This document shows, in pieces, positions 1,459 to 45,824 of a stretch of 64,000 nt of DNA. Source of the DNA: a virus (lineage: Duplodnaviria; Caudoviricetes). Under the pieces are notes generated by a model. The model had not been told where the DNA came from. It ran no database searches and was given only the letters and a program-made list of their open reading frames with translations. Where the stretch lies: the IMG/VR virus record IMGVR_UViG_2648501258_000001, positions 33,613-97,612 of that record; one strand, 5' to 3'. A program made the position numbers and the translations under genes. Numbering within the stretch: the stretch's first letter is position 1; the number at the start of each line of letters is the position of its first letter.

Positions 1459-1607
1459 TGGGGGCGGGAGCAGGACTCGAACCTGCACGCTTTCGCTGTC
1501 CGTTTGGGGCCACTTGTAACCTGCTAAGCTACTCCACACCTCGATATGGAAAGCCTCATACTCTTGCAGACCCTTAGAACTTTGTCTACCGATTCCATCA
1601 TCCCGTC
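1459..1607 (-). ncRNA. tRNA-Leu-like scaffold RNA with large structured insert replacing the anticodon loop (149 nt)
   Basis: GACGGGA/TCCCGCC-C-CCA acceptor, Leu-type D loop GGAATCGGTAGAC, GC-GAAA-GC variable arm, GCAGG-TTCGAGT-CCTGC T arm; own promoter upstream. Confidence 0.75.
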
Positions 1608-1618
1608 TTGTTGGGGCC

Positions 1619-1646
1619 ATTCTACATGATCCTGACCCCGTGTCAA
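1619..1646 (-). promoter_or_regulatory. sigma70-type promoter
   Basis: TTGACA-N16-TAGAAT. Confidence 0.75.
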
Positions 1647-1658
1647 CAATTTATTTTA

Positions 1659-4271
1659 TTAGTGGCAGCCTGCCCACGATTTTTCAACAATGTACCCTGC
1701 TGTCAGGTCGATTGGCACAATCTCTGTGCTGTAGAACTGACCAGCCAACGATACAGCCTTCACAGCCAGCACGCCAGCTTCGCAGTAGGCCACGTACACG
1801 CCGTCACCCTTAGAAGCCTTGCTAATGTCAGACCACACCTTGCCAGTGGAAGCCTCTTCTGCATCCTTGAATGCCTGAGCCTCTTCCTTGGTTGCGAACC
1901 GCTTGAACTCGAACAGGGAAGCCGAGGCTTCGAGCTGTGCTTCGTCGTGGTACGCGATCATTTGCTGGCAAAACTTCTTGTTCTTCCAGTCGTCAAGGAA
2001 GAAGTCCACCGACAACCCTGCTTCCTTCAACAGAACATCGTGAATCACCATCGCACGCTTGGCACAGATAACCCCACCAGATTGGAACAAGCTGTTCAAG
2101 ATCGCATGTGCAGAACGTGTTGGCACACGACGACCGTCAATCCCGACAATGTACTTCTTACCATTAGCTTCCCACTCCCGTTGCAGTGTCTCTTTCAGCA
2201 TCTTGAGCGGGAAAGCAGCATCCCAGAAAGCCTCAAACACTTGGTTGCCTGTTGTCAAGTCAGAACCAATAGTCTTAGCTACCTTCGCAGCCTGGGCACC
2301 ATAGGTACAGCCATACTTCACGTTCTTAGCCGGACTACGACCAAACTCTCGCCCGATAATAGCACTAATGCTCTTAGCCATCATCGTGTGTACATCGAAC
2401 GGTTTATCCAGCATCAGAGACTTGCAATACGCCCGGTCTACAGCATCGTACTGATCGCAATAAGCGCTTTCAATCCGAGCTTCCAAGCTATCGAAGTCAT
2501 AACCGATCTGGAAGTAGCCATCAGAGACTCCAAACAGCGCTCTCAGCTCTTTGCCGTACAAGCTTGTAACACGAGGCACGTTCGCTACAGATCGGTGCTT
2601 AAATCGGCTTGTAGCGGCTCCACATGTATCTGCTGGGGTTGGGATTCGGCCATCCTCACGGACGTTCGAAATATAACCCTTCTCTGGCTCTTCGTCTGGA
2701 TCATCCCAATCAATACCCCCACCCAGGATCGAGTTACGGCGGTGCTTAAATGTCAGATACTCTACCACGTCCTTCGCAAATGGAAAGCTCTCAGAGATAC
2801 GTTCCAAGTCGGGACACATATCTTTGTCCTGCCCCTTCGTAAAGCTAGGGTTGCTCAGTACCTTTAGGCCACGGCCACCACGTTCCAACATAGCTTCAAC
2901 AAGATTACGATCTGCTGGACGACGGTTAGGCCATAGGTGGGCCAAGCGGTCATCACGGAATGCAGTGGTTAGCGTCTGTTCAACGTAACGTTCAATCGCT
3001 TCCTTGAATTTCTCAGGAGTCAGTTTAACCTTCTTGCTATCAACAGAAAGGTCTTTCTCTTTGTATTCACTTGGGTTCCAACCCAGAGACACAAGCCAGT
3101 TCTTGATATGCGTGGTGTCGTCAATCGTAGCATCCATCTCAGTGACCAGAGGCACACCAGCTTCTAGTGGCAGCGAATACACCTTGCCCAACATCTCAAC
3201 TGTACGAGTTTCAGGGTCATACACACCATCGTGCTTGACAATGAATTTCTCCATGTGAGCGGAGATTTCACCGTTCTTCTTGAACTGCGTCACTGGTGGA
3301 GTGTAGTTCTTCATGAACACTTGAGTTGCTGGTCGCTTAGGTAGAAGTGGTTCCACCTTAACGCGGCGCTCTTCCATCATTTTATCCAGCTCATCCAGGG
3401 CCTTATGTGCAAGCTCTCGATTGAAGTGGAAGCCACGGTGTTCTTGCCGTGTGATGATTTCAGCGATGTTGTGTTCAAGCTTAATTGCACTCACCCACTT
3501 CATCAGCTCAGCCCGATCATTCAGGTTAGGGCCAGCTGTCTTGTGGTCAATCTTGTTCTTGGTGCCGTCCATCAAACCGAAGAATACCTCAGTGTTGGAC
3601 TTAACGTCGAAAATACAGTAATAGAGCATATCCGCAGCAAAGTCACGGAATCGAATACTAACGTGCATGTGTTTACGGAAGGCGATCTTCTCGCTCATCC
3701 CACCAGACGCCAGCTTCTCTAGGGAGTGACCACCATAGCGGTCTGGGTTCAAACACTTACTCAGTGGGAGTGTGTCCCAGATTGCCAGCTTATTCCCACC
3801 CCATGTATCGCTGGTAAACGTTGTTAGACCACGATCCCGTACTTCATGACCAATTGTAAAATTGATGCCATAGGCCAGCTTGATAGCCATCAAGTCATAA
3901 CTGATTTGGTTATGAGCCACAAGACGACGAAACTTAGTCTTGAGGATGAAGTCTTTCAGCTCAGACATTTGACGGTGGGTGTACTCCAGTACCTCATACT
4001 CCCGCAAGAAGTAGGTCTCACCGTTGATTTCCTCGCAGTATTCCCGACCATCGAAAATATACTTCGGGCCATTGTGGAACGCGATGATTTCACCAGTGAA
4101 ATGGTTTTCAAAAACCACACAATGCATTGCGAAGTTGCCTTTCAGGCGATACGGGCTTGCCGTGTAGTCGATGGTGCGTTCGTTCAAGAGGTCGTTAGCC
4201 TCAATGTCCCAGGTCCAGTCGTCTGGATGTGCAAACTTGTTTGGTGCAAATGGTGGTTTAATCAGATTCAT
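1659..4271 (-). CDS. DNA polymerase, family A, with 3'-5' exonuclease
   Basis: Exo motifs WDIE, AHN..YD; motif A YDFDSLEARI; motif B RSPAKNVKYGCTYG; motif C YHDE. Confidence 0.95.
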   Translation of the reverse strand: MNLIKPPFAPNKFAHPDDWTWDIEANDLLNERTIDYTASPYRLKGNFAMHCVVFENHFTGEIIAFHNGPKYIFDGREYCEEINGETYFLREYEVLEYTHRQMSELKDFILKTKFRRLVAHNQISYDLMAIKLAYGINFTIGHEVRDRGLTTFTSDTWGGNKLAIWDTLPLSKCLNPDRYGGHSLEKLASGGMSEKIAFRKHMHVSIRFRDFAADMLYYCIFDVKSNTEVFFGLMDGTKNKIDHKTAGPNLNDRAELMKWVSAIKLEHNIAEIITRQEHRGFHFNRELAHKALDELDKMMEERRVKVEPLLPKRPATQVFMKNYTPPVTQFKKNGEISAHMEKFIVKHDGVYDPETRTVEMLGKVYSLPLEAGVPLVTEMDATIDDTTHIKNWLVSLGWNPSEYKEKDLSVDSKKVKLTPEKFKEAIERYVEQTLTTAFRDDRLAHLWPNRRPADRNLVEAMLERGGRGLKVLSNPSFTKGQDKDMCPDLERISESFPFAKDVVEYLTFKHRRNSILGGGIDWDDPDEEPEKGYISNVREDGRIPTPADTCGAATSRFKHRSVANVPRVTSLYGKELRALFGVSDGYFQIGYDFDSLEARIESAYCDQYDAVDRAYCKSLMLDKPFDVHTMMAKSISAIIGREFGRSPAKNVKYGCTYGAQAAKVAKTIGSDLTTGNQVFEAFWDAAFPLKMLKETLQREWEANGKKYIVGIDGRRVPTRSAHAILNSLFQSGGVICAKRAMVIHDVLLKEAGLSVDFFLDDWKNKKFCQQMIAYHDEAQLEASASLFEFKRFATKEEAQAFKDAEEASTGKVWSDISKASKGDGVYVAYCEAGVLAVKAVSLAGQFYSTEIVPIDLTAGYIVEKSWAGCH

Positions 4272-4343: not shown

Positions 4344-6290
4344 TCAGTATTGTGATTCACCGCCGTAGTCTACCCAGCCACGCTCAGATAGTCCACGACG
4401 CGTACCACGGTCGTCATCACTTTTAGCAGCTTGGCTGGCAGCATACTCAGCTGCTGCCGCTGGGTTTCTGTTGAGGTAGTCTTCCAAATCATACAAGGTG
4501 TGCTCCTTGTTGTTGTAGAAGTATTCCCCAGCTTTAGGCCCTGTGTTTCCTGTCCAACGACACTTGGTCATCTTCATGAACGTGATGTTACGTTCAATCT
4601 CGCACTCAGCTTCCTTGTTACGGGTGAACAGAAGGTTGCACGCACCAGATTTGAAGATCGAAGAACTACCTTGGAAGTCTTCTTCAAACAGATCAGCACC
4701 AGCAGAGTTCTGCTTTCCGCCCTGCCCACTCTTACGGACGTGGTTGATGTTGATGAATGTGACCTTGTGGCTCTTCACAAGCCCTTTCTGCCAACGCATG
4801 AAGACAGCCTGCTCTTCGTTGCTCATACCGTCCAGAATGTCCTGTAGAGGGTCGAGGATGATAACTTTACAATCACACGAGATGATCAGTTCCATCACCT
4901 TCTCTTTCAAGTCGTCCAGACCACCATCACGCTCATCCAGCAAGTGCCAACGGTGACTGCCATCAGGATTGTAGGTCAGCTCGTGAACAGCCGCTTCAAA
5001 CTCCGGCGTATTCATCAGGTCGATCTTGTATTGCATATCCTCGATAAGCTCAAGCTTCTGACCAATGTGACGTGAAGCCATCTTAATGCCGTACTCTGCA
5101 CAATCAGATTCTAGCGATACAACCCCAACCTTATGTGGCGAATGGAAAATCCAGAAATACACCATCTCATCCACAATGGTTGACTTACCTGTACCAGACG
5201 CAGAGCCAAGGTTGACAATTCTGCCGAGTGGAATACCACCCGCCATCATCTTCTGTACCTTGTGCATGAACGCAGGAAGAGGAATCTTTGGAACTACAGC
5301 AGCAGCTTTCATCAATCCCAACAGAGAGCCAGAACCGACGATGCCATTTGGGGTGTAAGGTTGTGATGCATAGAACTCGGTAATGAACTGACCCTGCTTG
5401 TTTACAGCTGTGTCCTTATCCTTGTCCCAGATGTAGCTGTTGGGGTCTTTGAGGCTCATCTGCATGATGTATGCCTTACCCTTCGGAAGTGCCTTGGCGA
5501 TCTTCTCAGCAGCCTCACGGCCAGCTTTGTCGTTATCCATACAGATGATAACTTTATCGAATCGGTTGAAGAACTCATACTGGCCTACAATTTGCTTGTG
5601 GGCTCCACTCTCCCCGATGGTTGGTGACACTACGAATGTAGAATCGAAATCTTGACCTTTCTTGGCGTTCTCCCTTGCTCGAAAGTCTGACAACATTTGA
5701 TAGGCTGATAGCTGGTCAACTTCCCCACCTACGATCAGAATATCTCGACTACGCTTTTTAAGGAATCGCCACTGTCCGAACAAATGACAATCTTTACCAG
5801 TCTCTCCAATCCCTGCAAAATCTTTAGGGATCATACGCTTCTTGTAGCCCGTCAGCTCAAACCCCATATCGTTCTCAGCTTCTTGCGTTGCTGGATAGAG
5901 TTGTGCAGAGACCTTACCTGTGGCACCGTCAATCTCGTGACGTACTCCAAAGAAGGTTGTAGTCTCTTTACGGATACCTCGGAAGCCGAAACTATCATTT
6001 GTCGTTTGCTCCTTCAAGCGCTCATGAATCTCTGCGTTAAACAAGCTACCCACTAGTTCATACTCCTTTTCTACTACAACACCATTGTCTTCGAGCCATT
6101 CTTCTGATGGAATGGTAAAACCACCACAACCACCGAAACAGTGGGCTCCCTTGTGGCGTCCCTCGCGGTCTACACCATAGACCATTAAGTTATCGCCACT
6201 GTTATCCATGCCCTGTGAAACACACTTGGGACATGCGACCTTACCTTCGGTATACAAGTCAATACCGTACTTCTCAGCTACATCTGACAC
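4344..6290 (-). CDS. DNA primase-helicase (T7 gp4-like)
   Basis: N-terminal Zn ribbon CPKC...HCFGGC, TOPRIM MDND, Walker A SASGTGKS, IILDPL, INHVRK SF4 motifs. Confidence 0.93.
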   Translation of the reverse strand: MSDVAEKYGIDLYTEGKVACPKCVSQGMDNSGDNLMVYGVDREGRHKGAHCFGGCGGFTIPSEEWLEDNGVVVEKEYELVGSLFNAEIHERLKEQTTNDSFGFRGIRKETTTFFGVRHEIDGATGKVSAQLYPATQEAENDMGFELTGYKKRMIPKDFAGIGETGKDCHLFGQWRFLKKRSRDILIVGGEVDQLSAYQMLSDFRARENAKKGQDFDSTFVVSPTIGESGAHKQIVGQYEFFNRFDKVIICMDNDKAGREAAEKIAKALPKGKAYIMQMSLKDPNSYIWDKDKDTAVNKQGQFITEFYASQPYTPNGIVGSGSLLGLMKAAAVVPKIPLPAFMHKVQKMMAGGIPLGRIVNLGSASGTGKSTIVDEMVYFWIFHSPHKVGVVSLESDCAEYGIKMASRHIGQKLELIEDMQYKIDLMNTPEFEAAVHELTYNPDGSHRWHLLDERDGGLDDLKEKVMELIISCDCKVIILDPLQDILDGMSNEEQAVFMRWQKGLVKSHKVTFININHVRKSGQGGKQNSAGADLFEEDFQGSSSIFKSGACNLLFTRNKEAECEIERNITFMKMTKCRWTGNTGPKAGEYFYNNKEHTLYDLEDYLNRNPAAAAEYAASQAAKSDDDRGTRRGLSERGWVDYGGESQY

Positions 6291-6299
6291 GAGGTCTCC

Positions 6300-6557
6300 T
6301 TATGCTACCATTGGACCCGGACCATCACCTTCTGGTTCCGGCTCTTGTGTTTTCAGCTTATTCTCTGCCGCTTTCCGTGCGTACAGCCATTTATATTCCA
6401 ATCGCTCTTCTGGAGAAAGTGGATGGGAGAGTTGATAGTGATCGCCCTCATCGGACACACTGAAAGGGATGAGATGCTCACCCATAGCCGCCGTGACCAG
6501 ACTAGAGAGATTCGGGTGCTTGAGAATGAGGATATGACCTCGCAAATCTTTAATCAT
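6300..6557 (-). CDS. Hypothetical protein
   Basis: GGAGG RBS, coupled to neighbours. Confidence 0.6.
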   Translation of the reverse strand: MIKDLRGHILILKHPNLSSLVTAAMGEHLIPFSVSDEGDHYQLSHPLSPEERLEYKWLYARKAAENKLKTQEPEPEGDGPGPMVA

Positions 6558-6733
6558 GCAACACCTCCCAGAATCTTAGTTGTTACGGAAAATCCAGCAG
6601 CACAGTAGTGTTGTCGGATACTCTCTCCTGCTACACGAGCAGCGTCCGTATCAACGAACTTAATCACGTCACTTGTCATGACGTATTCTCCACGACTCAG
6701 GTAGCGAAGTACAACCAACAATGCAACTTCCAT
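6554..6733 (-). CDS. Small hypothetical protein (59 aa)
   Basis: MEVALLVVLRY... after AAGGAGA RBS; ATGA overlap with next gene. Confidence 0.6.
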   Translation of the reverse strand: MEVALLVVLRYLSRGEYVMTSDVIKFVDTDAARVAGESIRQHYCAAGFSVTTKILGGVA

Positions 6734-6744
6734 TATTCTTCTCC

Positions 6745-6843
6745 TTATCCAAGTATTAGTTTAAAGAAGCACGCACAACATACGGCAATGACGATACCTT
6801 TAAATATGAAGTTGAGCATGATTTGCATCTCATTCGAGTCCAT
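6745..6843 (-). CDS. Small membrane peptide (32 aa)
   Basis: MDSNEMQIMLNFIFKGIVIAVCCACFFKLILG; TGATG coupling. Confidence 0.5.
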   Translation of the reverse strand: MDSNEMQIMLNFIFKGIVIAVCCACFFKLILG

Positions 6844-6956
6844 CAATCATCCCTCTTGTGTTTGTGCTTTTTCTTGCGACGGTACTTTGTACGATCCGGT
6901 TCAATCTTCGGAACGTTCACGCGTCGATTAGGTGCAGCCAGGGGATTACGAGCCAA
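6843..6956 (-). CDS. Small basic protein, ArfA-like motif (37 aa)
   Basis: TTG start, MARNPLAAPNRRVNVPKIEPDRTKYRRKKKHKHKRDD; coupled on both sides. Confidence 0.55.
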   Translation of the reverse strand: MARNPLAAPNRRVNVPKIEPDRTKYRRKKKHKHKRDD

Positions 6957-7155
6957 GGACACGAATCCACTGCCAACCTTCGTTAAATTCAACATCATAC
7001 ACATCCTTTTCGTGAAGATTTTCGATTGTCACACGCCACATCACTGGCCCAGTCGGGACAGCAGACACATCGTAGCCCAGGGGATCAGTCTTGTCAAACA
7101 ATTTCTGGACGAACTCTTGCATCATGTTGTTTGCTACGCTTTGGGATGTACGCAT
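6946..7155 (-). CDS. Hypothetical protein
   Basis: ORF in co-directional array. Confidence 0.55.
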   Translation of the reverse strand: MRTSQSVANNMMQEFVQKLFDKTDPLGYDVSAVPTGPVMWRVTIENLHEKDVYDVEFNEGWQWIRVLGS

Positions 7156-7325
7156 CTCATCTCTCCAATAGATTCTGTGAGGTAGGATTGTAGCTGTATG
7201 GCTTGCTCCATGTCAAGCATTATCGTTTCTTGACTGCCATGCACACCATCCACAGCAATGAATATACGATTGTCCAGTGTGTGGACGACTTCAATGCGTC
7301 GGTCATCTTGAGTGTCGATAATCAT
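7134..7325 (-). CDS. Hypothetical protein
   Basis: AAGGAGA RBS. Confidence 0.6.
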   Translation of the reverse strand: MIIDTQDDRRIEVVHTLDNRIFIAVDGVHGSQETIMLDMEQAIQLQSYLTESIGEMRCVHPKA

Positions 7326-7351
7326 TAACGTCTCCTTTTCTTTTGGGTGTT

Positions 7352-7379
7352 AAAAAGCCCCGCTGCATAAGCACGGGGC
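7352..7379 (-). terminator. Intrinsic terminator
   Basis: GCCCCG...CGGGGC hairpin followed by TTTTT on minus strand. Confidence 0.8.
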
Positions 7380-7388
7380 AATTCAATT

Positions 7389-7581
7389 CAGAGCAACATC
7401 GTAGACTGGCTCACTATGAGCGACTCCACTCTCCACGAGTGGCAAGCTAAGCCTCATTTGAATTTACTAGTCAGGAAGTTCGCGACCCTCCATTCGTTCA
7501 ACTCAAACTACGCAATCCTTCACACCATCTAGATTGGTCGTTTACGGATTTCACTGCTCTACAGTCTACGATGTTGCTCTG
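7389..7581 (-). ncRNA. Stand-alone structured RNA closed by perfect 20-bp helix
   Basis: IR 7389-7408/7562-7581, three internal arms, between promoter and terminator, no credible ORF. Confidence 0.75.
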
Positions 7582-7592
7582 TTTATCGGGCC

Positions 7593-7620
7593 ATTCTACA
7601 CTAGAACAGCCCCTTGTCAA
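7593..7620 (-). promoter_or_regulatory. sigma70-type promoter
   Basis: TTGACA-N16-TAGAAT. Confidence 0.8.
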
Positions 7621-7623
7621 GTA

Positions 7624-7854
7624 TTAAATCAAGACAAGTTTCATTGGTTGAGTGTGTACCATCAGATCACCATCGTAAATCTCAACACGAGAGTCCGCAT
7701 AGTTCAGGTGCAGTACATACCCATCGAATCGACTAAGGCCAGAGAAGACCTTGAAATCACAATTACAAAATTGCACGCCAACGTCGGTCTCATCCCAGCC
7801 CTCATAGCTATTCAAAACGAAACTTTCAATGCCCAGGACACGTACACGACTCAT
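7624..7854 (-). CDS. Hypothetical protein
   Basis: RBS, coupled start. Confidence 0.6.
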   Translation of the reverse strand: MSRVRVLGIESFVLNSYEGWDETDVGVQFCNCDFKVFSGLSRFDGYVLHLNYADSRVEIYDGDLMVHTQPMKLVLI

Positions 7855-8153
7855 TATTTCTCTCCCTTGGTAATTAAACGGTAAATTGTGTTGCGTGTCT
7901 CAATGAAGTGTTCGCCATCCACAGAGAACATCTGCTTGACTGCCGATGTACGGACCGGCTCACCATCAGCGAAGATACCACGGCTGTCGTTGTAAATGTA
8001 ACCATGAGCTACAGTGTGTCCTGGAAACATCTCACTGTCAAGCGAGCGGAACACCATCTGAGCAACAAACTTGTCTGCTGGCAGTGCGTCCAGTGGCAGA
8101 ATACGCCATTGGCTACCCTCCAACATCTCCTTCACATGGTTCTGTGGGTTCAC
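7854..8153 (-). CDS. Conserved phage hypothetical protein
   Basis: G.IYND.RG.F.DG..VRTS...IETRNTIY motif common in phages. Confidence 0.7.
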   Translation of the reverse strand: MNPQNHVKEMLEGSQWRILPLDALPADKFVAQMVFRSLDSEMFPGHTVAHGYIYNDSRGIFADGEPVRTSAVKQMFSVDGEHFIETRNTIYRLITKGEK

Positions 8154-8506
8154 TGTGCAGTCTCCAGGCCATCCAGACGGGCATTCAGCTCATCGGTGAA
8201 GTAGGTCTTACCGAACAGAAGAGTCTTTGGACGCTCTGGTACAGGACGCAGAGTTGCTACCAGCAATTGCTCAAAGTCAATGAAGACTTCCTTGCAATAT
8301 TTATTCTCGGTACGGTATGGAGTCATATCGGCGCTGGGAGTCATCAGACCTGTGCTGTCTACGAAAGTGCAGAGGCCATAGGTCGGTTCAACCCGAGTAC
8401 TACCGGCAAACCAAGTACAGCCATTCGAGAACAGCAGCTTTTGTACTGCAACGAGTTCTTCTTTGTTGGTCGCACGAATCTTAATGTTACGGAATTGTTG
8501 AGTCAT
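8150..8506 (-). CDS. Hypothetical protein
   Basis: AAGGAGAG RBS. Confidence 0.65.
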   Translation of the reverse strand: MTQQFRNIKIRATNKEELVAVQKLLFSNGCTWFAGSTRVEPTYGLCTFVDSTGLMTPSADMTPYRTENKYCKEVFIDFEQLLVATLRPVPERPKTLLFGKTYFTDELNARLDGLETAQ

Positions 8507-8518
8507 TTTTGCTCTCCT

Positions 8519-8929
8519 TTATTGAATTGATCGTGGCCCGGTTTGAAACACTGGACCCTTATCTTTGTTCGGTGCATCGTTCAAGATTGCAAATGGGTTG
8601 TCGTCAATCCAGATGGAGACGTTGATCCCTTGTGCAGCCATGAACTCTTTCTTGGCTTGGAGGCTAGTGTAGAAGATTCTATAGCCCTTGTCAACAAGAA
8701 ATTGCAAATCTTCTGGGTACGTTTCTGGTGTTCTCCATGTACAGATCACAACATGATACCCGATCTTCTCCAGAAGATCAAGCACTTTAACCCAGCCAGT
8801 TTCATTGTCGCTGATTGTCTCATCGAAATCAACAGCAACAACCTTCGGTTCCTGCATCAGAAACTCCGTTCTAGCCCATGGGTCACATGAACGTACAGCG
8901 GGAGATACAATTTCCAGCTTATGTTCCAT
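8519..8929 (-). CDS. HAD-superfamily hydrolase-like protein
   Basis: VDFDETI motif I, ICTWR, WIDDNP motif IV. Confidence 0.75.
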   Translation of the reverse strand: MEHKLEIVSPAVRSCDPWARTEFLMQEPKVVAVDFDETISDNETGWVKVLDLLEKIGYHVVICTWRTPETYPEDLQFLVDKGYRIFYTSLQAKKEFMAAQGINVSIWIDDNPFAILNDAPNKDKGPVFQTGPRSIQ

Positions 8930-8940
8930 ACATCCTCCTG

Positions 8941-9138
8941 TTATTTAAATTGAAGCAGCTCTTGCTCCAGTTCTCGAATCTTACCATCACCCTCCACTTT
9001 ACGCAAGAAGCGAATAGCATATTGTGAATTGGTCTCTTGAATGCCTTGACCTCCAAGGAGAATTCCAAGCTCGACACGTAGACGCTCAATATCAGAAGGC
9101 CGTAGAGTCTTCAAGGCTGTACGCAGAGAGGCATTCAT
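8941..9138 (-). CDS. Hypothetical protein
   Basis: Coupled ORF. Confidence 0.55.
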   Translation of the reverse strand: MNASLRTALKTLRPSDIERLRVELGILLGGQGIQETNSQYAIRFLRKVEGDGKIRELEQELLQFK

Positions 9139-9365
9139 TTCACCACCACAGCGTTAAAAAATGCATTAGTTGTCCTGTCGTAGTTGTATCGAATACCTGA
9201 CACGGTGCAATAGCTGGTAAGAATAACGCCATCTCGGTCGGTTCCAGTTGTAAACTCACCTCCAACTTTATAGCAAGCCGCCTTGGAAGCTTCAACTTCT
9301 TCCATACTGTAAGAGCAACCTACCAGAGCCAGGGATAAAACTGCGAGTGCAATCATCTTTTTCAT
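9135..9365 (-). CDS. Putative lipoprotein
   Basis: Signal peptide with LVGC lipobox. Confidence 0.7.
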   Translation of the reverse strand: MKKMIALAVLSLALVGCSYSMEEVEASKAACYKVGGEFTTGTDRDGVILTSYCTVSGIRYNYDRTTNAFFNAVVVK

Positions 9366-9583
9366 TGGAATCTCCCATTCTTATACTTCAAGATTTTGTG
9401 CATTCGCATACACTTGTATGTTTCGGTGTTAAGACTAGCATACCCTCCAGCCTTGTTGCAAGCTATTCTTACATCTTCTTGTTTATCCGTTGTACTTATC
9501 AGGATAAAATTGAACAGGATAAACCCTGTAAGCAGTTTGCACCATCCTGCGAGGCTTGTGGGAATGATCATATATGACTCCAT
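9362..9583 (-). CDS. Putative small membrane protein
   Basis: Hydrophobic segment then C.KAGG...C as in neighbour; 5' part overlaps upstream ORF. Confidence 0.4.
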   Translation of the reverse strand: MESYMIIPTSLAGWCKLLTGFILFNFILISTTDKQEDVRIACNKAGGYASLNTETYKCMRMHKILKYKNGRFQ

Positions 9584-41452: not shown

Positions 41453-41528
41453 TGGTGCATTCTCGTGGTTTCGATCCACGTCATCTGGGTTTTCAAGCCA
41501 GTGCTTCTACCAAGTTAGCTTAGAATGC
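41453..41528 (-). tRNA. tRNA-Phe(GAA)
   Basis: Loop TTGAAAA; cloverleaf; CCA. Confidence 0.85.
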
Positions 41529-41532
41529 AATT

Positions 41533-41606
41533 TGGTGCTTCATGATAGAATCGAACTACCGTAGCTGGCATGTAAGACCAGCGTTCTGCCATTGAACTAA
41601 TGAAGC
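41533..41606 (-). tRNA. tRNA-Val(TAC)
   Basis: Loop CTTACAT; cloverleaf; CCA. Confidence 0.9.
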
Positions 41607-41610
41607 AAAT

Positions 41611-41686
41611 TGGTGCGGGATTAGGGAGTCGAACCCTAGTTACTCGGGTGGAAGCCGAGAGTATTAGACCTCTATACGAATCACGC
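41611..41686 (-). tRNA. tRNA-Gly(TCC)
   Basis: Loop CTTCCAC; CCA; A73. Confidence 0.88.
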
Positions 41687-41691
41687 ATGTT

Positions 41692-41766
41692 TGGAGTATC
41701 TTACTGGAGTTGAACCAGTCTAAGTGGGTTTGCAATCCACTACCTCAGCCGCTCGGACAAAGACAC
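41692..41766 (-). tRNA. tRNA-Cys(GCA)
   Basis: Loop TTGCAAA; U73. Confidence 0.88.
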
Positions 41767-41773
41767 TTTAAAT

Positions 41774-41853
41774 TGGTGGAAGCTCCGAGGATTCGAACCC
41801 GGCTGCTGTTCTCAGTGCAAGTGAGATGACCACTCCTAGCAGTCCCAGCCCCC
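41774..41853 (-). tRNA. tRNA-Ala(TGC)
   Basis: Loop CTTGCAC; G3-U70. Confidence 0.85.
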
Positions 41854-41873
41854 ATAAATCGTTGTAACTAAAT

Positions 41874-41948
41874 TGGTGTGAGGTGGAGATTCGAACTCCA
41901 ACAATCGTTTCACAGACGAAAGTGTCAGCCAGTGACAACGGCCTCACC
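41874..41948 (-). tRNA. tRNA-His(GTG), atypical
   Basis: Loop CTGTGAA; A73 rather than C73. Confidence 0.75.
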
Positions 41949-41955
41949 ATTAAAT

Positions 41956-42030
41956 TGGTCACTCGGGGGTGGAGTCGAACCACCGCCACTTCGTTCCAAA
42001 CAAAGTACGCTACCGTAACGCTTCCGAGAG
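41956..42030 (-). tRNA. tRNA-Pro(TGG)
   Basis: Loop TTTGGAA; C1-G72, A73. Confidence 0.85.
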
Positions 42031-42053
42031 ATTGTCCTTACGGACTATAAAAC

Positions 42054-42127
42054 TGGTGGACCGCTGACTTCGCTCTTTACCAGAAGACTGTCGTCATTAA
42101 CCGCTAGCATCACGTGCAGAGCAGCCC
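42054..42127 (-). ncRNA. CCA-ended non-cloverleaf RNA (74 nt)
   Basis: GGGCTGCT/AGCGGTCC-A-CCA with G3-U; no T loop. Confidence 0.6.
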
Positions 42128-42133
42128 ATAAAT

Positions 42134-42218
42134 TGGTGGTTCATCTAGGACTCGAACCTAGGATGTATCGTTGTGCCGGGTTACAGCCGGTCGTCTTCGC
42201 CGCTCGACGCAATGAACC
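42134..42218 (-). tRNA. tRNA-Tyr(GTA)
   Basis: Loop CTGTAAC; long variable region. Confidence 0.88.
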
Positions 42219-42225
42219 ATGAATC

Positions 42226-42308
42226 ATCGAAGTAGCTCTACCGTCTGAGCTTACATTGAGGGGCGACCCCTAAAAGGTGGGACTCGAACCCACGCACACT
42301 TCTTCAAT
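42226..42308 (-). ncRNA. Circularly permuted tRNA mimic (YrlA-like architecture)
   Basis: Order T arm, capped acceptor-like hairpin, D arm; ends pair ATTGAAG/CTTCGAT. Confidence 0.7.
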
Positions 42309-42479
42309 TGGCGGCAAAGGAAGGGAATTGAACCCACCGCTACTAAGTCTCTTCACTTATCCTACTCTTCCGTGTATAGAGCGGTGTAAGCTATCATACG
42401 TTTCACTAGCCCCAGATACACATGAACTTTATGCCTACACGGGGGGCGTACTCATTCATGATCCACTTGGCTCAGAGCC
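42309..42479 (-). ncRNA. 171-nt CCA-ended tRNA-like RNA with kissing loop
   Basis: T loop TTCAATT, GCCA end, CCGTGTA/TACACGG loop complementarity. Confidence 0.7.
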
Positions 42480-42486
42480 TTTAAAT

Positions 42487-42572
42487 TGGCTGGCGCGGTA
42501 GGGCTCGAACCTACAAGACCTTTCGGAAGCTCCGTTAACAGCGGAGTGCAGTACCATTATGCTTACACGCCA
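42487..42572 (-). tRNA. tRNA-Asn(GTT) with long variable arm
   Basis: Loop CTGTTAA; G73; extra CC-GAAA-GG arm. Confidence 0.85.
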
Positions 42573-42573
42573 A

Positions 42574-42939
42574 TTATTCTTCTATCTTCAACCTGACATG
42601 TTCTTCGCGGTGGCAGTTAGCACACAGCATAACACATTTATCAAGTTCGATTTTAATCTTCTCAAAAGACTTCGTATGCCCATTCGCGGAGATACCAAAG
42701 TCCTTCTGTGTTGGATCAGTGTGATGGAACTCAAGAGCAGCAGAACATTTGTCATACCCGCAGCTTTCACACTTACCGCCTTTATATTCAATCGACAAAG
42801 CTTTCAGTTTCAATCGCCTACGCTGCACTGCTTCTGACAAGCACTTACAGCAACGATACTTCATGATCTTTGGATTGTCAAGTCGGAAGTTTGTCTCTCC
42901 GTGTTTCTGACAGGTTCGAACTACTTGTTCCCTTACCAC
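42574..42939 (-). CDS. HNH endonuclease in tRNA cluster
   Basis: KGGKC..CGY....ALEFHH.DP, KC..LCANCH...H; GTG start after GGAGG. Confidence 0.88.
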   Translation of the reverse strand: MVREQVVRTCQKHGETNFRLDNPKIMKYRCCKCLSEAVQRRRLKLKALSIEYKGGKCESCGYDKCSAALEFHHTDPTQKDFGISANGHTKSFEKIKIELDKCVMLCANCHREEHVRLKIEE

Positions 42940-43049
42940 ATTACCTCCATTAAGACCCACGCCCGGTGAGAACATTACCTATAAATCTGATAGAGACTAT
43001 ATTTAGACAGCACACTCTATCTGGCTGTATACGTGGGGAGCCACATATA

Positions 43050-43129
43050 TGGTTGCGAAAGGAGGAATCGAACCTCAAGCATCTGGTTATGAGCCAGTTA
43101 ACAGCACCAGCCGTCTTAGCGCTCTCGCA
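43050..43129 (-). tRNA. tRNA-Met(CAT)
   Basis: Loop CTCATAA; CCA; initiator/elongator/Ile2 status unresolved. Confidence 0.8.
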
Positions 43130-43243
43130 TTAAATTGGTTTGTTGTAAGCGCTTTCAAGCCTTCCCAGTATCCCAGACCAACTCAGTCGTCTCGGTGGGG
43201 CATTCATCGGGTCGCATATTTCAGCTTCTTTAAACCCTGAATC

Positions 43244-43317
43244 TGGTTGCTCGTGAGTGAATTGAACACCCCTAAGACGCTTATCAGGCGACTGCATTAC
43301 CACTATGCTAACGAGCA
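43244..43317 (-). tRNA. tRNA-Ile(GAT)
   Basis: Loop CTGATAA. Confidence 0.88.
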
Positions 43318-43323
43318 ATAATT

Positions 43324-43397
43324 TGGTGCCCCAGTAGAGAATCAAACTCCAATCCCCGGATTACAAAACCGGTGCATCATCATAATGCTTCAAGGGC
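43324..43397 (-). tRNA. tRNA-Thr(TGT)
   Basis: Loop TTTGTAA. Confidence 0.85.
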
Positions 43398-43570
43398 AAT
43401 GTGAGCAGTTCTACGACATGCTCAGGCCGGGCGTATTTGCATCATGCTTGAGCCTTACCACAGGCCCACTTTACCGCGTTGATGTTTGCGGGATAAGCCT
43501 ACCGAGATGGCTTTCTCATTGCGACAGACTACAGGATTTCAAACTGCATGTCTACCCTCGGGCAACAAAT

Positions 43571-43650
43571 TGGCGACCTATATGGGTAACGATCCCATCT
43601 GAACATCTCCCGTGACAGGGGAGCAACCACACCGTGCAGTACCATAAGTC
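43571..43650 (-). tRNA. tRNA-Asp(GTC)
   Basis: Loop CTGTCAC; G73; atypical T loop ATCGTTA. Confidence 0.82.
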
Positions 43651-43656
43651 ATTGTT

Positions 43657-43734
43657 TGGTTTGTCGAAGTAGGAACCGATTACCTACGCCATATCATTGC
43701 TTTCGCTCGGACAGCCAGTAAAGGCTTCAACAAA
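43657..43734 (-). ncRNA. CCA-ended RNA with 10-bp terminal helix
   Basis: TTTGTTGAAG/CTTCGACAAA-CCA. Confidence 0.6.
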
Positions 43735-43735
43735 T

Positions 43736-43812
43736 TGGTACACCATCGGGGACTCGAACCCCGTTCATGAGGGTGAAAACCTCATATCCTAAACCTCGTA
43801 GACGAATGGTGC
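43736..43812 (-). tRNA. tRNA-Glu(TTC)
   Basis: Loop TTTTCAC. Confidence 0.88.
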
Positions 43813-43821
43813 ATTAAATCT

Positions 43822-43953
43822 TTAGGCTGTTTCACCAGACACTGGGTGTTTGGTTTTCAGACCTTTGTTCGGGTGACGACCTTTCGACTCTTTCAAGCGA
43901 GTGGTCTTATCAACCGGAGCATGTTCTTTTGTAGCATCATATGGCTTTGCCAT
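43822..43953 (-). CDS. Small basic peptide (43 aa) in tRNA cluster
   Basis: AAAGGAGA RBS; MAKPYDATKEHAPVDK...VSGETA. Confidence 0.6.
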   Translation of the reverse strand: MAKPYDATKEHAPVDKTTRLKESKGRHPNKGLKTKHPVSGETA

Positions 43954-43980
43954 TTTCTTTCTCCTTTGTCGTTTCTAATT

Positions 43981-44058
43981 TGGTACACGGGACAGGGGTC
44001 GAACCTGCCTAAAACGCCTTCGTAGGGCGGTGCCTCAGTCCAATCGAGCCACCCGTGT
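43981..44058 (-). tRNA. tRNA-Arg(ACG)
   Basis: Loop CTACGAA. Confidence 0.88.
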
Positions 44059-44078
44059 ATGTCGTTGCTATATGGAGA

Positions 44079-44106
44079 AGTTTACACGACATTTACACAA
44101 TGTCAA
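44079..44106 (-). promoter_or_regulatory. Internal tRNA-cluster promoter
   Basis: TTGACA-N16-TAAACT. Confidence 0.65.
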
Positions 44107-44131
44107 GCGTTTATTTCAACATATTTTAAAT

Positions 44132-44206
44132 TGGTACTGGATGTTGGATTCGAACCAACCTAAAGAGGCTTAGAAGGCCCCTGCACATCCACTGTACCAA
44201 TCCAGT
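44132..44206 (-). tRNA. tRNA-Arg(TCT)
   Basis: Loop CTTCTAA. Confidence 0.9.
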
Positions 44207-44211
44207 ATGTT

Positions 44212-44379
44212 TGGTCGGTGCCCTCGGGGGATGATCCCGTAAGATGATGCTTTCCTCTTGCTTGGGTGGGCTACGCACGCCACTTGCACAAGTCTACTGA
44301 CACTTCTCCATGACCCACTTCCAGAATCCTTCCAGCCTGCGTAGTGGGCCTTTCAGATTCATCCAGTTGTCTTACACCG
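44212..44379 (-). ncRNA. 168-nt CCA-ended tRNA-like RNA with kissing loop
   Basis: CGGTGT/GCACCG-A-CCA, CTACGCA/TGCGTAG complementarity. Confidence 0.7.
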
Positions 44380-44389
44380 TTTATTAAAT

Positions 44390-44465
44390 TGGCGGGCTAC
44401 CGAGGATTCGAACCCCATCCGCATGGCTTTGGAGGCCAGCATGCATGCCATCACAATCGTAACCC
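44390..44465 (-). tRNA. tRNA-Trp(CCA)
   Basis: Loop CTCCAAA; G73. Confidence 0.85.
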
Positions 44466-44569
44466 TTAATTCGTAGGAGACATTTATAACACGCTGTCTC
44501 CTGAGCGTCAACACATAAGAGTTGGTTTCTTATGCTCCATCCCAAGGCGCTTGAACTCCCAGGTATGTC

Positions 44570-44645
44570 TGGAAGAGGATGCTGGAATCGAACCAGCTTA
44601 AACGGAGTCAAAGTCCGGTGCCTAATGCCAATCGGCCAATCCTCA
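44570..44645 (-). tRNA. tRNA-Gln(TTG)
   Basis: Loop CTTTGAC. Confidence 0.88.
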
Positions 44646-44770
44646 ATTGTTAGTACCGAGAGTCTTCTCCGGTTTCGAACCCTTTGTCAACTCTCTAGCT
44701 GCCTTCCCTATACGTCACCGCGAGCCGGTCAGGCTGGGAATCGAACCCGGCGTATAGGTATTTCAGTGTT

Positions 44771-44848
44771 TGGTAGGGCACCTCGGACTCGAACCGAGAA
44801 GCTCCTGATTCTAAATCAGGAAGGTAGACCAATTCCCTTCAATGCCCC
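44771..44848 (-). tRNA. tRNA-Leu(TAG), short variable arm
   Basis: Loop TTTAGAA; A73. Confidence 0.88.
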
Positions 44849-45291
44849 AATAGTCTTCTGCTGAATTGACTGTGACAATTGGGACACAAGAATCGTAGAT
44901 TCTCTGCTCTATCGTCTAGCCAGTTTTCATTTATATGATCAACATCTAAAGTCAATGGACTACCCATCCACTCTGGCTCTTGACCACATTTACTGCATTC
45001 GTGTTTAGTTCCCGACTCAATCAACGCCCTGACAAGGTGATGGGACTTTGCTCGTCTACCTTCTGTGCGGAGAATCAGAATATCACCTGATGTTTTTCGC
45101 TGCCTACTTATCGAACCCTTTGCATGAGCTTGACCTGTAAAGTGCGCTGTACAAATACCAATGCGACGTATCCTATTCGTGTAGTGCGAGTGACTGCCTC
45201 CCGCTTGCTTCAATCCAAGCTCTCGTAGGACTTCGTAAATACTGTAGCATCTACTGACAATGATTGCAAGCTGTTCATCTGTTACTTTCAT
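44839..45291 (-). CDS. HNH endonuclease in tRNA cluster
   Basis: CSKCG..W...L.LDVDHIN..W.D....NLRFLCPNCH. Confidence 0.88.
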   Translation of the reverse strand: MKVTDEQLAIIVSRCYSIYEVLRELGLKQAGGSHSHYTNRIRRIGICTAHFTGQAHAKGSISRQRKTSGDILILRTEGRRAKSHHLVRALIESGTKHECSKCGQEPEWMGSPLTLDVDHINENWLDDRAENLRFLCPNCHSQFSRRLLGH

Positions 45292-45307
45292 CGTCTCTCC
45301 TTTTGTT

Positions 45308-45384
45308 TGGTGGGCCTTCCCAGACTCGAACTGGGATCATCTTCATTTTGAGTGAAGCACGTCTGCCAATTGCATCAAAGGCCC
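45308..45384 (-). tRNA. tRNA-Leu(CAA), short variable arm
   Basis: Loop CTCAAAA; A73. Confidence 0.88.
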
Positions 45385-45461
45385 AAATTCGTACTGACGA
45401 CCAGAATCTCACTGGAGTAGGTCTCGGGACTTTATGTCAGTCATACCCAAAACACTTTATT

Positions 45462-45550
45462 TGGAGGCGGGTAAAGGAATCGAACCCTCACCGGCTACTA
45501 ACCAGTGGCGCAGTTTTCAAGACTGTGTACCGCCATCGGTGCTACCCGCC
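45462..45550 (-). tRNA. tRNA-Ser(TGA)
   Basis: Loop CTTGAAA; long variable arm. Confidence 0.88.
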
Positions 45551-45655
45551 GAAATTTAGACCAGCGTAATTGGGACTCTTACCCCATTTGTTTGAGAAAC
45601 CGCTCGCTGGCTCGACGGCTCAATGTTTGTCATATCAGGAGCGACCTGATCATTC

Positions 45656-45743
45656 TGGCAGAGCATGTAGGATTCGAACCTACGGAGCGTTTCCACTCTA
45701 TGGGTTAGCAACCCACTACCATCGGCCTCTCGGTCAATGCTCT
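45656..45743 (-). tRNA. tRNA-Ser(GCT)
   Basis: Loop TTGCTAA; long variable arm; G73. Confidence 0.9.
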
Positions 45744-45747
45744 ATAT

Positions 45748-45824
45748 TGGTTGGACGCCCCAGACTCGAACTGGGAACCTACCGGGTAAAAGCCGGTTAT
45801 TCTAAACCATTGAATTAGCGTCCA
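45748..45824 (-). tRNA. tRNA-Lys(TTT)
   Basis: Loop CTTTTAC. Confidence 0.9.

Follow-up and report, generated by a model that had tools for sequence, protein, structure and literature searches.

A perfect inverted-repeat element, probably transcribed and probably a lineage-specific insertion, in the shell of an early transcription unit of a lytic phage

The Correia elements of Neisseria are co-transcribed MITEs (miniature inverted-repeat elements) that fold via their terminal inverted repeats, are present in many copies and carry a TA duplication. The early transcripts of phages T7 and lambda carry RNase III processing hairpins, which are compact, irregular and conserved within a phage group, and a duplex of about 20 bp is of the size that host RNase III cuts. 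Perfect inverted repeats are also found in invertons of the fimS type, where they flank an invertible promoter segment of 150-300 bp, and small RNAs of the Hfq type end in a 3' module composed of an A/U-rich stretch, a terminator hairpin and a U-tail. We know of no described phage RNA that acts as a decoy of retrons. MITEs are documented, if rarely, in phage genomes, including those of Pseudomonas phages (surveyed in PMC11602168).

The element described here lies in a 64,000-nt stretch of DNA (the window), which is part of a 97.6-kb virus record; the nearest named relatives of this phage are Pseudomonas phages ventosus and Bitten, and its nearest metagenomic relative is a locus, L006, with a primase 91% identical. 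An earlier note on the window had described a self-contained ncRNA gene closed by a perfect 20-bp helix, running from a near-consensus promoter to a terminator. The promoter, the inverted repeat and the terminator were all found to be real and all on the minus strand, with the following features.

7624..7854, minus strand: upstream neighbour, a 76-aa protein (phrog_4551), also the neighbour in relatives.
7620-7593, minus strand: sigma-70-type promoter TTGACA-N16-TAGAAT (boxes TTGACA 7620-7615 and TAGAAT 7598-7593, spacer 16 nt), matching 11/12 of the consensus and orthologous to the promoter of the gene p204 in relatives.
7582..7586, minus strand: predicted transcript start (about 7586) and short 5' leader, placed by spacing from the -10 box.
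7584, minus strand: junction base at which homology to a p204-bearing sister phage breaks; contigs of two public runs (X2 and X3) diverge there, on both sides.
7562..7581, minus strand: 5' arm of the inverted repeat, CAGAGCAACAUCGUAGACUG / CAGAGCAACATCGTAGACTG, perfect over 20 bp.
7409..7561, minus strand: interior of 153 nt, with no homologue, no ORF with relatives and hairpins not above shuffled stability.
7389..7408, minus strand: 3' arm of the inverted repeat, the exact reverse complement; homology to L006 restarts right after it, at 7388.
7380..7388, minus strand: A/U-rich linker AAUUGAAUU (DNA AATTGAATT) between helix and terminator; the relatives L004 (ventosus) and L006 have AATTGAAT.
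7379-7357 with 7356-7352, minus strand: intrinsic terminator, a hairpin followed by U5, orthologous to the terminator behind the relatives' structured RNA.
7134..7325, minus strand: downstream neighbour, a 63-aa protein, whose start lies 27 nt past the terminator.
4344-6290, minus strand: primase/helicase gene, with the element 1.1 kb upstream of it.

The promoter scored highest among nine promoter-like sites in 6000-9500. The terminator reads GCCCCGUGC-UUAU-GCAGCGGGGC followed by U5, a G+C-rich hairpin that also forms in the minimum free energy (MFE) fold, and about 36-37 nt of the terminator region were found at 97% identity in ventosus and L006; a simple terminator scan did not list the hairpin at 7379-7352. 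Between these signals, the whole element measures 193 bp and is closed by its 20-bp arms, in which 20/20 pairs are Watson-Crick, without G-U pairs or mismatches; the two arms are separated by 153 nt, as the earlier note's estimate of about 150 nt implied. Such a repeat greatly exceeds what chance would give: even when up to 3 mismatches are tolerated, the arm 20-mer occurs in only two places in the 64 kb (chance expectation 0.01; two sites in 0/100 shuffles). No other inverted repeat within 600 nt is as long anywhere in the 97.6-kb genome; the second and third longest measure 15 and 14 nt, and the longest in shuffled genomes (n = 5) was 12-15 nt. A promoter, a hairpin-closed non-coding stretch and a terminator predict a short non-coding transcript, and because of this the reading as an ncRNA gene was a fair one; as set out below, the stretch now looks like a lineage-specific insertion and not a conserved RNA gene.

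Six-frame translation of the element gave short frames only, none of them credible, in agreement with the earlier note; a coding reading was rejected, as a search of GenBank phages with the longest open frame (49 codons, plus strand) gave no relative (best E 5).

The predicted 234-nt RNA folded at -97.8 kcal/mol, with a z-score of -9.05 relative to shuffles, because of its closing helix and terminator, whereas the 153-nt interior alone reached -43.0 kcal/mol (z -1.54), which was equalled by 11/200 shuffles; the opposite strand gave a z-score of -0.99. The 20-bp duplex was retained in both the MFE and the centroid fold, so that the predicted fold offers 20/20 continuous pairs, the length (about 20 bp or more of continuous dsRNA) of an RNase III substrate; no RNase III is encoded by the phage. 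Three interior arms forming a four-way junction had been proposed. Most of them appeared in the MFE fold (AAUCC/GGAUU, UUUGAGUU/AAUUCAAA and CCACUC/GAGUGG), but GGCUUA/UGAGCC was missing, with a local GCUCA/UGAGC hairpin in its place. The four-way junction is thus a possible fold in the model, one not distinguishable from chance.

A retron-like msr-msd RNA, or a decoy for a host's RT-based defence with the reverse transcriptase supplied by the host, had been suggested by the layout, in which a long terminal repeat closes a structured RNA and UAG lies directly 3' of the 5' arm. This layout shares with retron msr-msd the a1/a2-like terminal repeats that close a structured RNA and a promoter of its own, a repeat form that is not by itself specific. 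The element is unlike msr-msd in having no reverse transcriptase beside it or in the genome (PF00078, 0 matches in the window, as the earlier note had said, and in the whole 97.6-kb genome, with control genomes positive), no conserved msr or msd features shown and no match in Rfam. Its interior is not significantly structured, and its place in a sister phage is simply that of a 3'UTR insertion downstream of a different RNA. We regard the retron-like reading as scarcely credible; beyond the a1/a2-like repeat, nothing was found behind it.

The Rfam search that had been proposed as a check matched no family to the element; its best hit was a Tetrahymena snoRNA (21.5 bits against a threshold of 100; E 0.18). 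Across the whole window only tRNAs passed the gathering threshold of Rfam 15, and permissive thresholds applied to the element, the window, L004, L005 (Bitten) and another related locus, L010, returned nothing relevant. The tRNAs form a dense cluster on the minus strand at 41456-45824 of the window, with 19 genes called by ARAGORN and 17 tRNA matches in Rfam, of which the match at 41456-41528 is missing from the ARAGORN list. A relation to Y RNA and Ro was also considered and rejected, no TROVE (Ro) protein being found in the phage.

The homologue search, likewise suggested earlier, found no other copy in collections of viruses, metagenomes, genomes, plasmids and GenBank phages, from which records very close to the window may be missing. 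The exact 20-mer arm had 0 matches in viral contigs, in metagenome contigs and in one genome per GTDB species; a gapped pattern of the outer 13+13 nt at the right spacing had 0 matches in genomes, and an exact scan with an inner 20-mer had 0 matches. An inner 19-mer matched two viral contigs whose surroundings are unrelated, and these were taken as chance. Blastn against plasmids gave no match, GenBank phages gave no match beyond the element's flanks, and when 56 related loci were searched with the element by BLAST and nhmmer, the promoter and terminator alone were recovered. The element was not found in the genomes of five complete relatives and is single-copy in its own. Scans with the conserved terminator recovered the L006 contig only, as did a protein-based search with the 63-aa neighbour.

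In L004, L005 and L006 the same promoter and the same terminator enclose p204 and a non-coding tail of about 300-400 nt behind it, and p204 with its tail was present in 17 related loci. The distance from promoter to terminator is about 920-1,060 bp in relatives versus 240 bp in the window. The term 'self-contained' was therefore misleading, the promoter and terminator belonging to an older transcription unit. p204 is a 204-aa gene (phrog_1491, labelled 'tail fiber protein', no Pfam family). Its family counts 306 members at E <= 0.001, almost all of them encoded on contigs of phage size (about 95-110 kb), and close variants, 90-94% identical, form the clusters P0002-P0004 in other public assemblies. 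It is absent from the window's genome, in which an nhmmer profile of the tail likewise gave no match (best E 5.9).

The tail was found to be a structured RNA. An alignment of 14 non-identical tails gave a consensus of 42 pairs, including three nested long-range helices that join both ends, with 95.9% of cells paired and compensatory changes at 24/42 pairs. Double-change pairs numbered 24, compared with 13.4 +/- 2.1 in shuffled alignments (0/500 reached 24), and sliding the partners by 1-3 columns left 2-10 such pairs. The RNA (2705-2983 in L006, 2728-3057 in L010 and 2201-2500 in L004) is rich in conserved A-rich single-stranded stretches. It had no Rfam match, and its identity as a tmRNA was rejected, ARAGORN finding nothing. 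It was present in 48 GenBank phage records, mostly unannotated, 47/48 of them Pseudomonas phages, with carriers including VCM, KIL1-5, Kremar, PE09 and UNO-G1W1, the last classed as an otagovirus in PMC11256812. Among the literature matches listed for Pseudomonas phage ventosus and Otagovirus, as excerpted, none concerned non-coding RNA. The tail RNA is a candidate new structured phage RNA family.

Two further observations were made at these loci. Between the p204 stop and the tail RNA, ventosus (2108-2200) and locus L032 (2308-2395), and these only, carry an extra module of about 90 nt; the two copies differ, and several helices still pair by eye (GGCC/GGCC versus GGCGT/ACGCC). The module may be a further small structured RNA, judging from these pairings; Rfam on L004 at E <= 1 gave no match. 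In Bitten (PV037721.1), an annotated 1,089-nt CDS (JDPFHZWO_CDS0026, 1080-2168), on the strand opposite to its neighbours, overlaps both the promoter and the p204 homologue (81% identical, 1566-2177, plus strand of the locus), and is probably a mis-call.

A derivation of the element's interior from the relatives' tail RNA was tried and rejected, as local alignment was not significant and the nhmmer profile gave no match. One stretch, window 7532-7548, matches 2858-2874 of the L006 tail RNA at 15/17 positions (CGTAAACGACCAATCTA versus CGTCAACGACTAATCTA), a score equalled by 10/300 shuffles, uncorrected for six tests. Such a match may reflect either a partial derivation or chance.

Contigs of four public runs (X1-X4) were compared with the window over 6900-8100, and the comparison suggests, at the level of assembled sequence, three states of the locus: gene and RNA without the insert, gene and RNA with the insert, and insert only. 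The contigs of X3 and X4 do not extend over the element. The first state is that of the relatives. Homology between the window and L006 extends down to 7572 and restarts exactly at 7388, and in a second X1 contig the terminator and the upstream gene lie 1,351 nt apart, a spacing that, estimated from the L006 distances, fits p204 and its tail without the insert. The second state, with the insert just before the terminator, was seen in X2 alone. In this RNA-seq library, one contig follows the window from the promoter up to 7584, where it turns into a 5'UTR, a Shine-Dalgarno sequence and ATGACGCA, the start of p204; an 843-nt contig passes from the 3' strand of the closing helix of the tail RNA (...CCCCGAGCTGCCGGTGACA...) into 7584-7496 of the element, within which the X2 copy departs from the window at 4 places; and a third covers 7499-6987. 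The insert therefore coexists with p204 and its tail in a sister phage, in the order promoter, p204, tail RNA, insert, terminator, and the window's phage has this same order with p204 and the tail taken out. Viral contigs gave 0 matches to a 24-nt word spanning the junction in X2.

The third state was seen in the window and in a diverged contig of X1, a DNA run. This contig of 5,510 nt spans the whole stretch in the window's arrangement, with 29 differences over 1,201 nt; among the 27 of these that are listed, none falls in 7352-7656 and 20 fall in 7657-7807. The contig is a mosaic, being nearly identical to the window in 7082-7341 as well, and an unchanged insert is therefore poor evidence of selection.

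The junction at 7584 lies in A/C-rich sequence, and ACAAACA is present both in the 5'UTR and in the flank preceding the insert of X2. In L006, the 9-mer GACAAACAA occurs in the 5'UTR of p204 (2056-2066) and just past the tail RNA (2973-2981), a direct repeat flanking the cassette of p204 and RNA, so that loss of the cassette could be favoured. Because the window junction is 2 nt away from the simple repeat-mediated product, we call the loss of p204 and its tail an illegitimate deletion with little microhomology.

The minus-strand neighbours are kept in relatives, with genes for 99-aa and 76-aa proteins upstream and for 63-aa, 69-aa and 85-aa proteins and the primase/helicase downstream. No promoter was found between the terminator and the start of the 63-aa gene, which therefore probably depends on read-through. 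In seven related loci (L012, L014, L015, L016, L017, L032 and L050), a further promoter of a recurring type, TTGACAA...GGTGTAGAATG, stands right behind the terminator of the tail RNA; the window, L006, ventosus and Bitten have no such promoter behind the terminator, and their downstream genes therefore probably need terminator read-through.

The position of the element upstream of the primase/helicase gene, together with a repeat that is perfect at the DNA level, would suit a cis-acting replication or recombination signal that works as a hairpin or cruciform. The element is, however, absent from all 17 p204-bearing loci with the same primase, and GC skew showed no turning point here, which makes such a signal very unlikely. 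Perfect repeats around a segment of this size are also the anatomy of an inverton, in which a site-specific recombinase would flip the 153-bp segment between the 20-bp repeats, recombination sites being ones that need identity. The element shares with fimS-type invertons the perfect repeats around about 150 bp but lacks a recombinase (neither a serine, PF00239, nor a tyrosine, PF00589, recombinase was found in the phage), an internal promoter (no promoter-like site in the segment, on either strand) and a second orientation. No strand-changing or inverted joint was seen in the contigs of the four runs, which is weak evidence, as contigs drop rare forms. We consider flipping of the segment highly improbable.

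We give about even chances to the reading that the element is a MITE-like or foldback insertion, passively transcribed as a panhandle RNA of about 235 nt. A DNA-level origin is favoured because the repeat is perfect, the interior has no significant structure and all relatives except one lack the element. In the phage group the slot is an early transcription unit composed of the promoter, p204, the covarying RNA of about 300 nt and the terminator, and in the sister phage the insert stands between the structured RNA and the terminator. In this scheme, a deletion of about 1 kb would have removed p204 and the structured RNA from the window's phage, fusing the promoter to the insert at 7584. The promoter would now transcribe the insert alone, from about 7586 to 7352, into an RNA of about 235 nt whose ends pair as the perfect 20-bp duplex, with AAUUGAAUU and the terminator behind it. 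The duplex would be open to cutting by host RNase III, and read-through transcripts would carry the insert as a 5' leader of the 63-aa gene. In our judgement such an RNA would arise incidentally and would, at most, influence RNA stability or processing in cis; we do not see it as a dedicated trans-acting molecule. Going by the sequence comparisons, the element is not an anciently conserved RNA gene.

Several properties of MITEs are present. The terminal repeats measure 20 bp (at least 10 bp in MITEs), the element is small and non-coding (193 bp, in the range 50-800 bp), and it shows presence/absence polymorphism, being absent in L006 and 16 other loci and present in X2, X1 and the window. The earlier note had named a match to a mobile miniature inverted-repeat element without RNA covariation as evidence against its ncRNA gene, and the data favour something close to this through the presence and absence among close relatives, although a single readable copy was found. 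Copy number counts against a MITE, as a true one should be multi-copy somewhere: the element has one copy in its own genome and 0 exact-word matches in the viral, metagenome and GTDB collections. There is also no clear target duplication; the insert is flanked by AAA and AAT, with a shared 2-nt AA (the empty site of L006 is ACAAAC-AA-TTGAAT), too short to count as a target-site duplication. Against a mere passenger, the deletion stopped 3 nt short of the insert and two diverged genomes have the insert-only form; both observations would fit selection on the RNA as well.

Selection of this kind would make the element a stand-alone phage sRNA, an abundant early RNA trimmed by RNase III to a stable core of about 150 nt that acts in trans, as a base-pairing regulator, a protein sponge or a decoy for host defence. 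A near-consensus promoter and a strong terminator that enclose the element alone, its survival of a deletion ending 3 nt away and its recurrence as insert only in two diverged genomes speak for such an RNA; but a promoter would be required anyway if the downstream genes use read-through. The X1 contig has no listed difference inside the insert when its flanks differ by up to 13%, but the same contig is a mosaic with 7082-7341 near-identical too. In relatives, a genuine structured RNA occupies this transcript slot, and the A/U-rich stretch, terminator hairpin and U-tail resemble the 3' module of Hfq-type sRNAs. Set against these are an interior no more stable than shuffles (z -1.54), the lack of an Rfam match, the lack of a homologue, by which covariation is not assessable, and flat depth (about 7-10) over the insert and its flanks in the sole RNA library, X2, where DNA carry-over is possible. 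We consider a selected sRNA a possible but rather unlikely explanation. We consider it improbable that the panhandle is an early RNA under selection, retained when the phage lost the widely conserved p204-RNA module, which RNase III would release to act on a host factor as a sponge or decoy (a defence that senses dsRNA or structured RNA, for example), and which would so replace or compensate for that module.

The element is thus real, non-random, hairpin-closed and probably transcribed, and is probably an insertion specific to one lineage, left behind between the promoter and terminator of a deleted operon; it is not demonstrably a four-way-junction RNA or a relative of retrons. Alone it is a modest curiosity, a rare and well-resolved inverted-repeat insertion in a lytic phage with three evolutionary states, through which an early operon appears to have become a miniature gene for an RNA hairpin. 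The case also cautions that a promoter, a hairpin and a terminator in a row may be what is left of a deleted operon and not a purpose-built RNA gene. The by-product of more value is the unannotated, covarying RNA of about 300 nt behind p204, which has no match in Rfam, and the window's phage shows that p204 and its tail RNA can go missing as a pair.

Among known systems, bacterial MITEs are likewise small and non-coding with terminal inverted repeats, lie in the non-coding part of a transcription unit and are polymorphic for presence and absence. The element is unlike them in being a single copy with no relative, in lacking a clear target duplication and in having no known transposase with matching ends. 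Co-transcribed MITEs fold through their terminal repeats, and the transcript of the element would likewise form a long hairpin of the size cut by RNase III. Unlike the RNase III hairpins of T7 and lambda, the element has a perfect duplex around 153 nt of interior, and 17 related loci lack it; what it shares with them is about two helical turns of dsRNA in an early transcript of a lytic phage.
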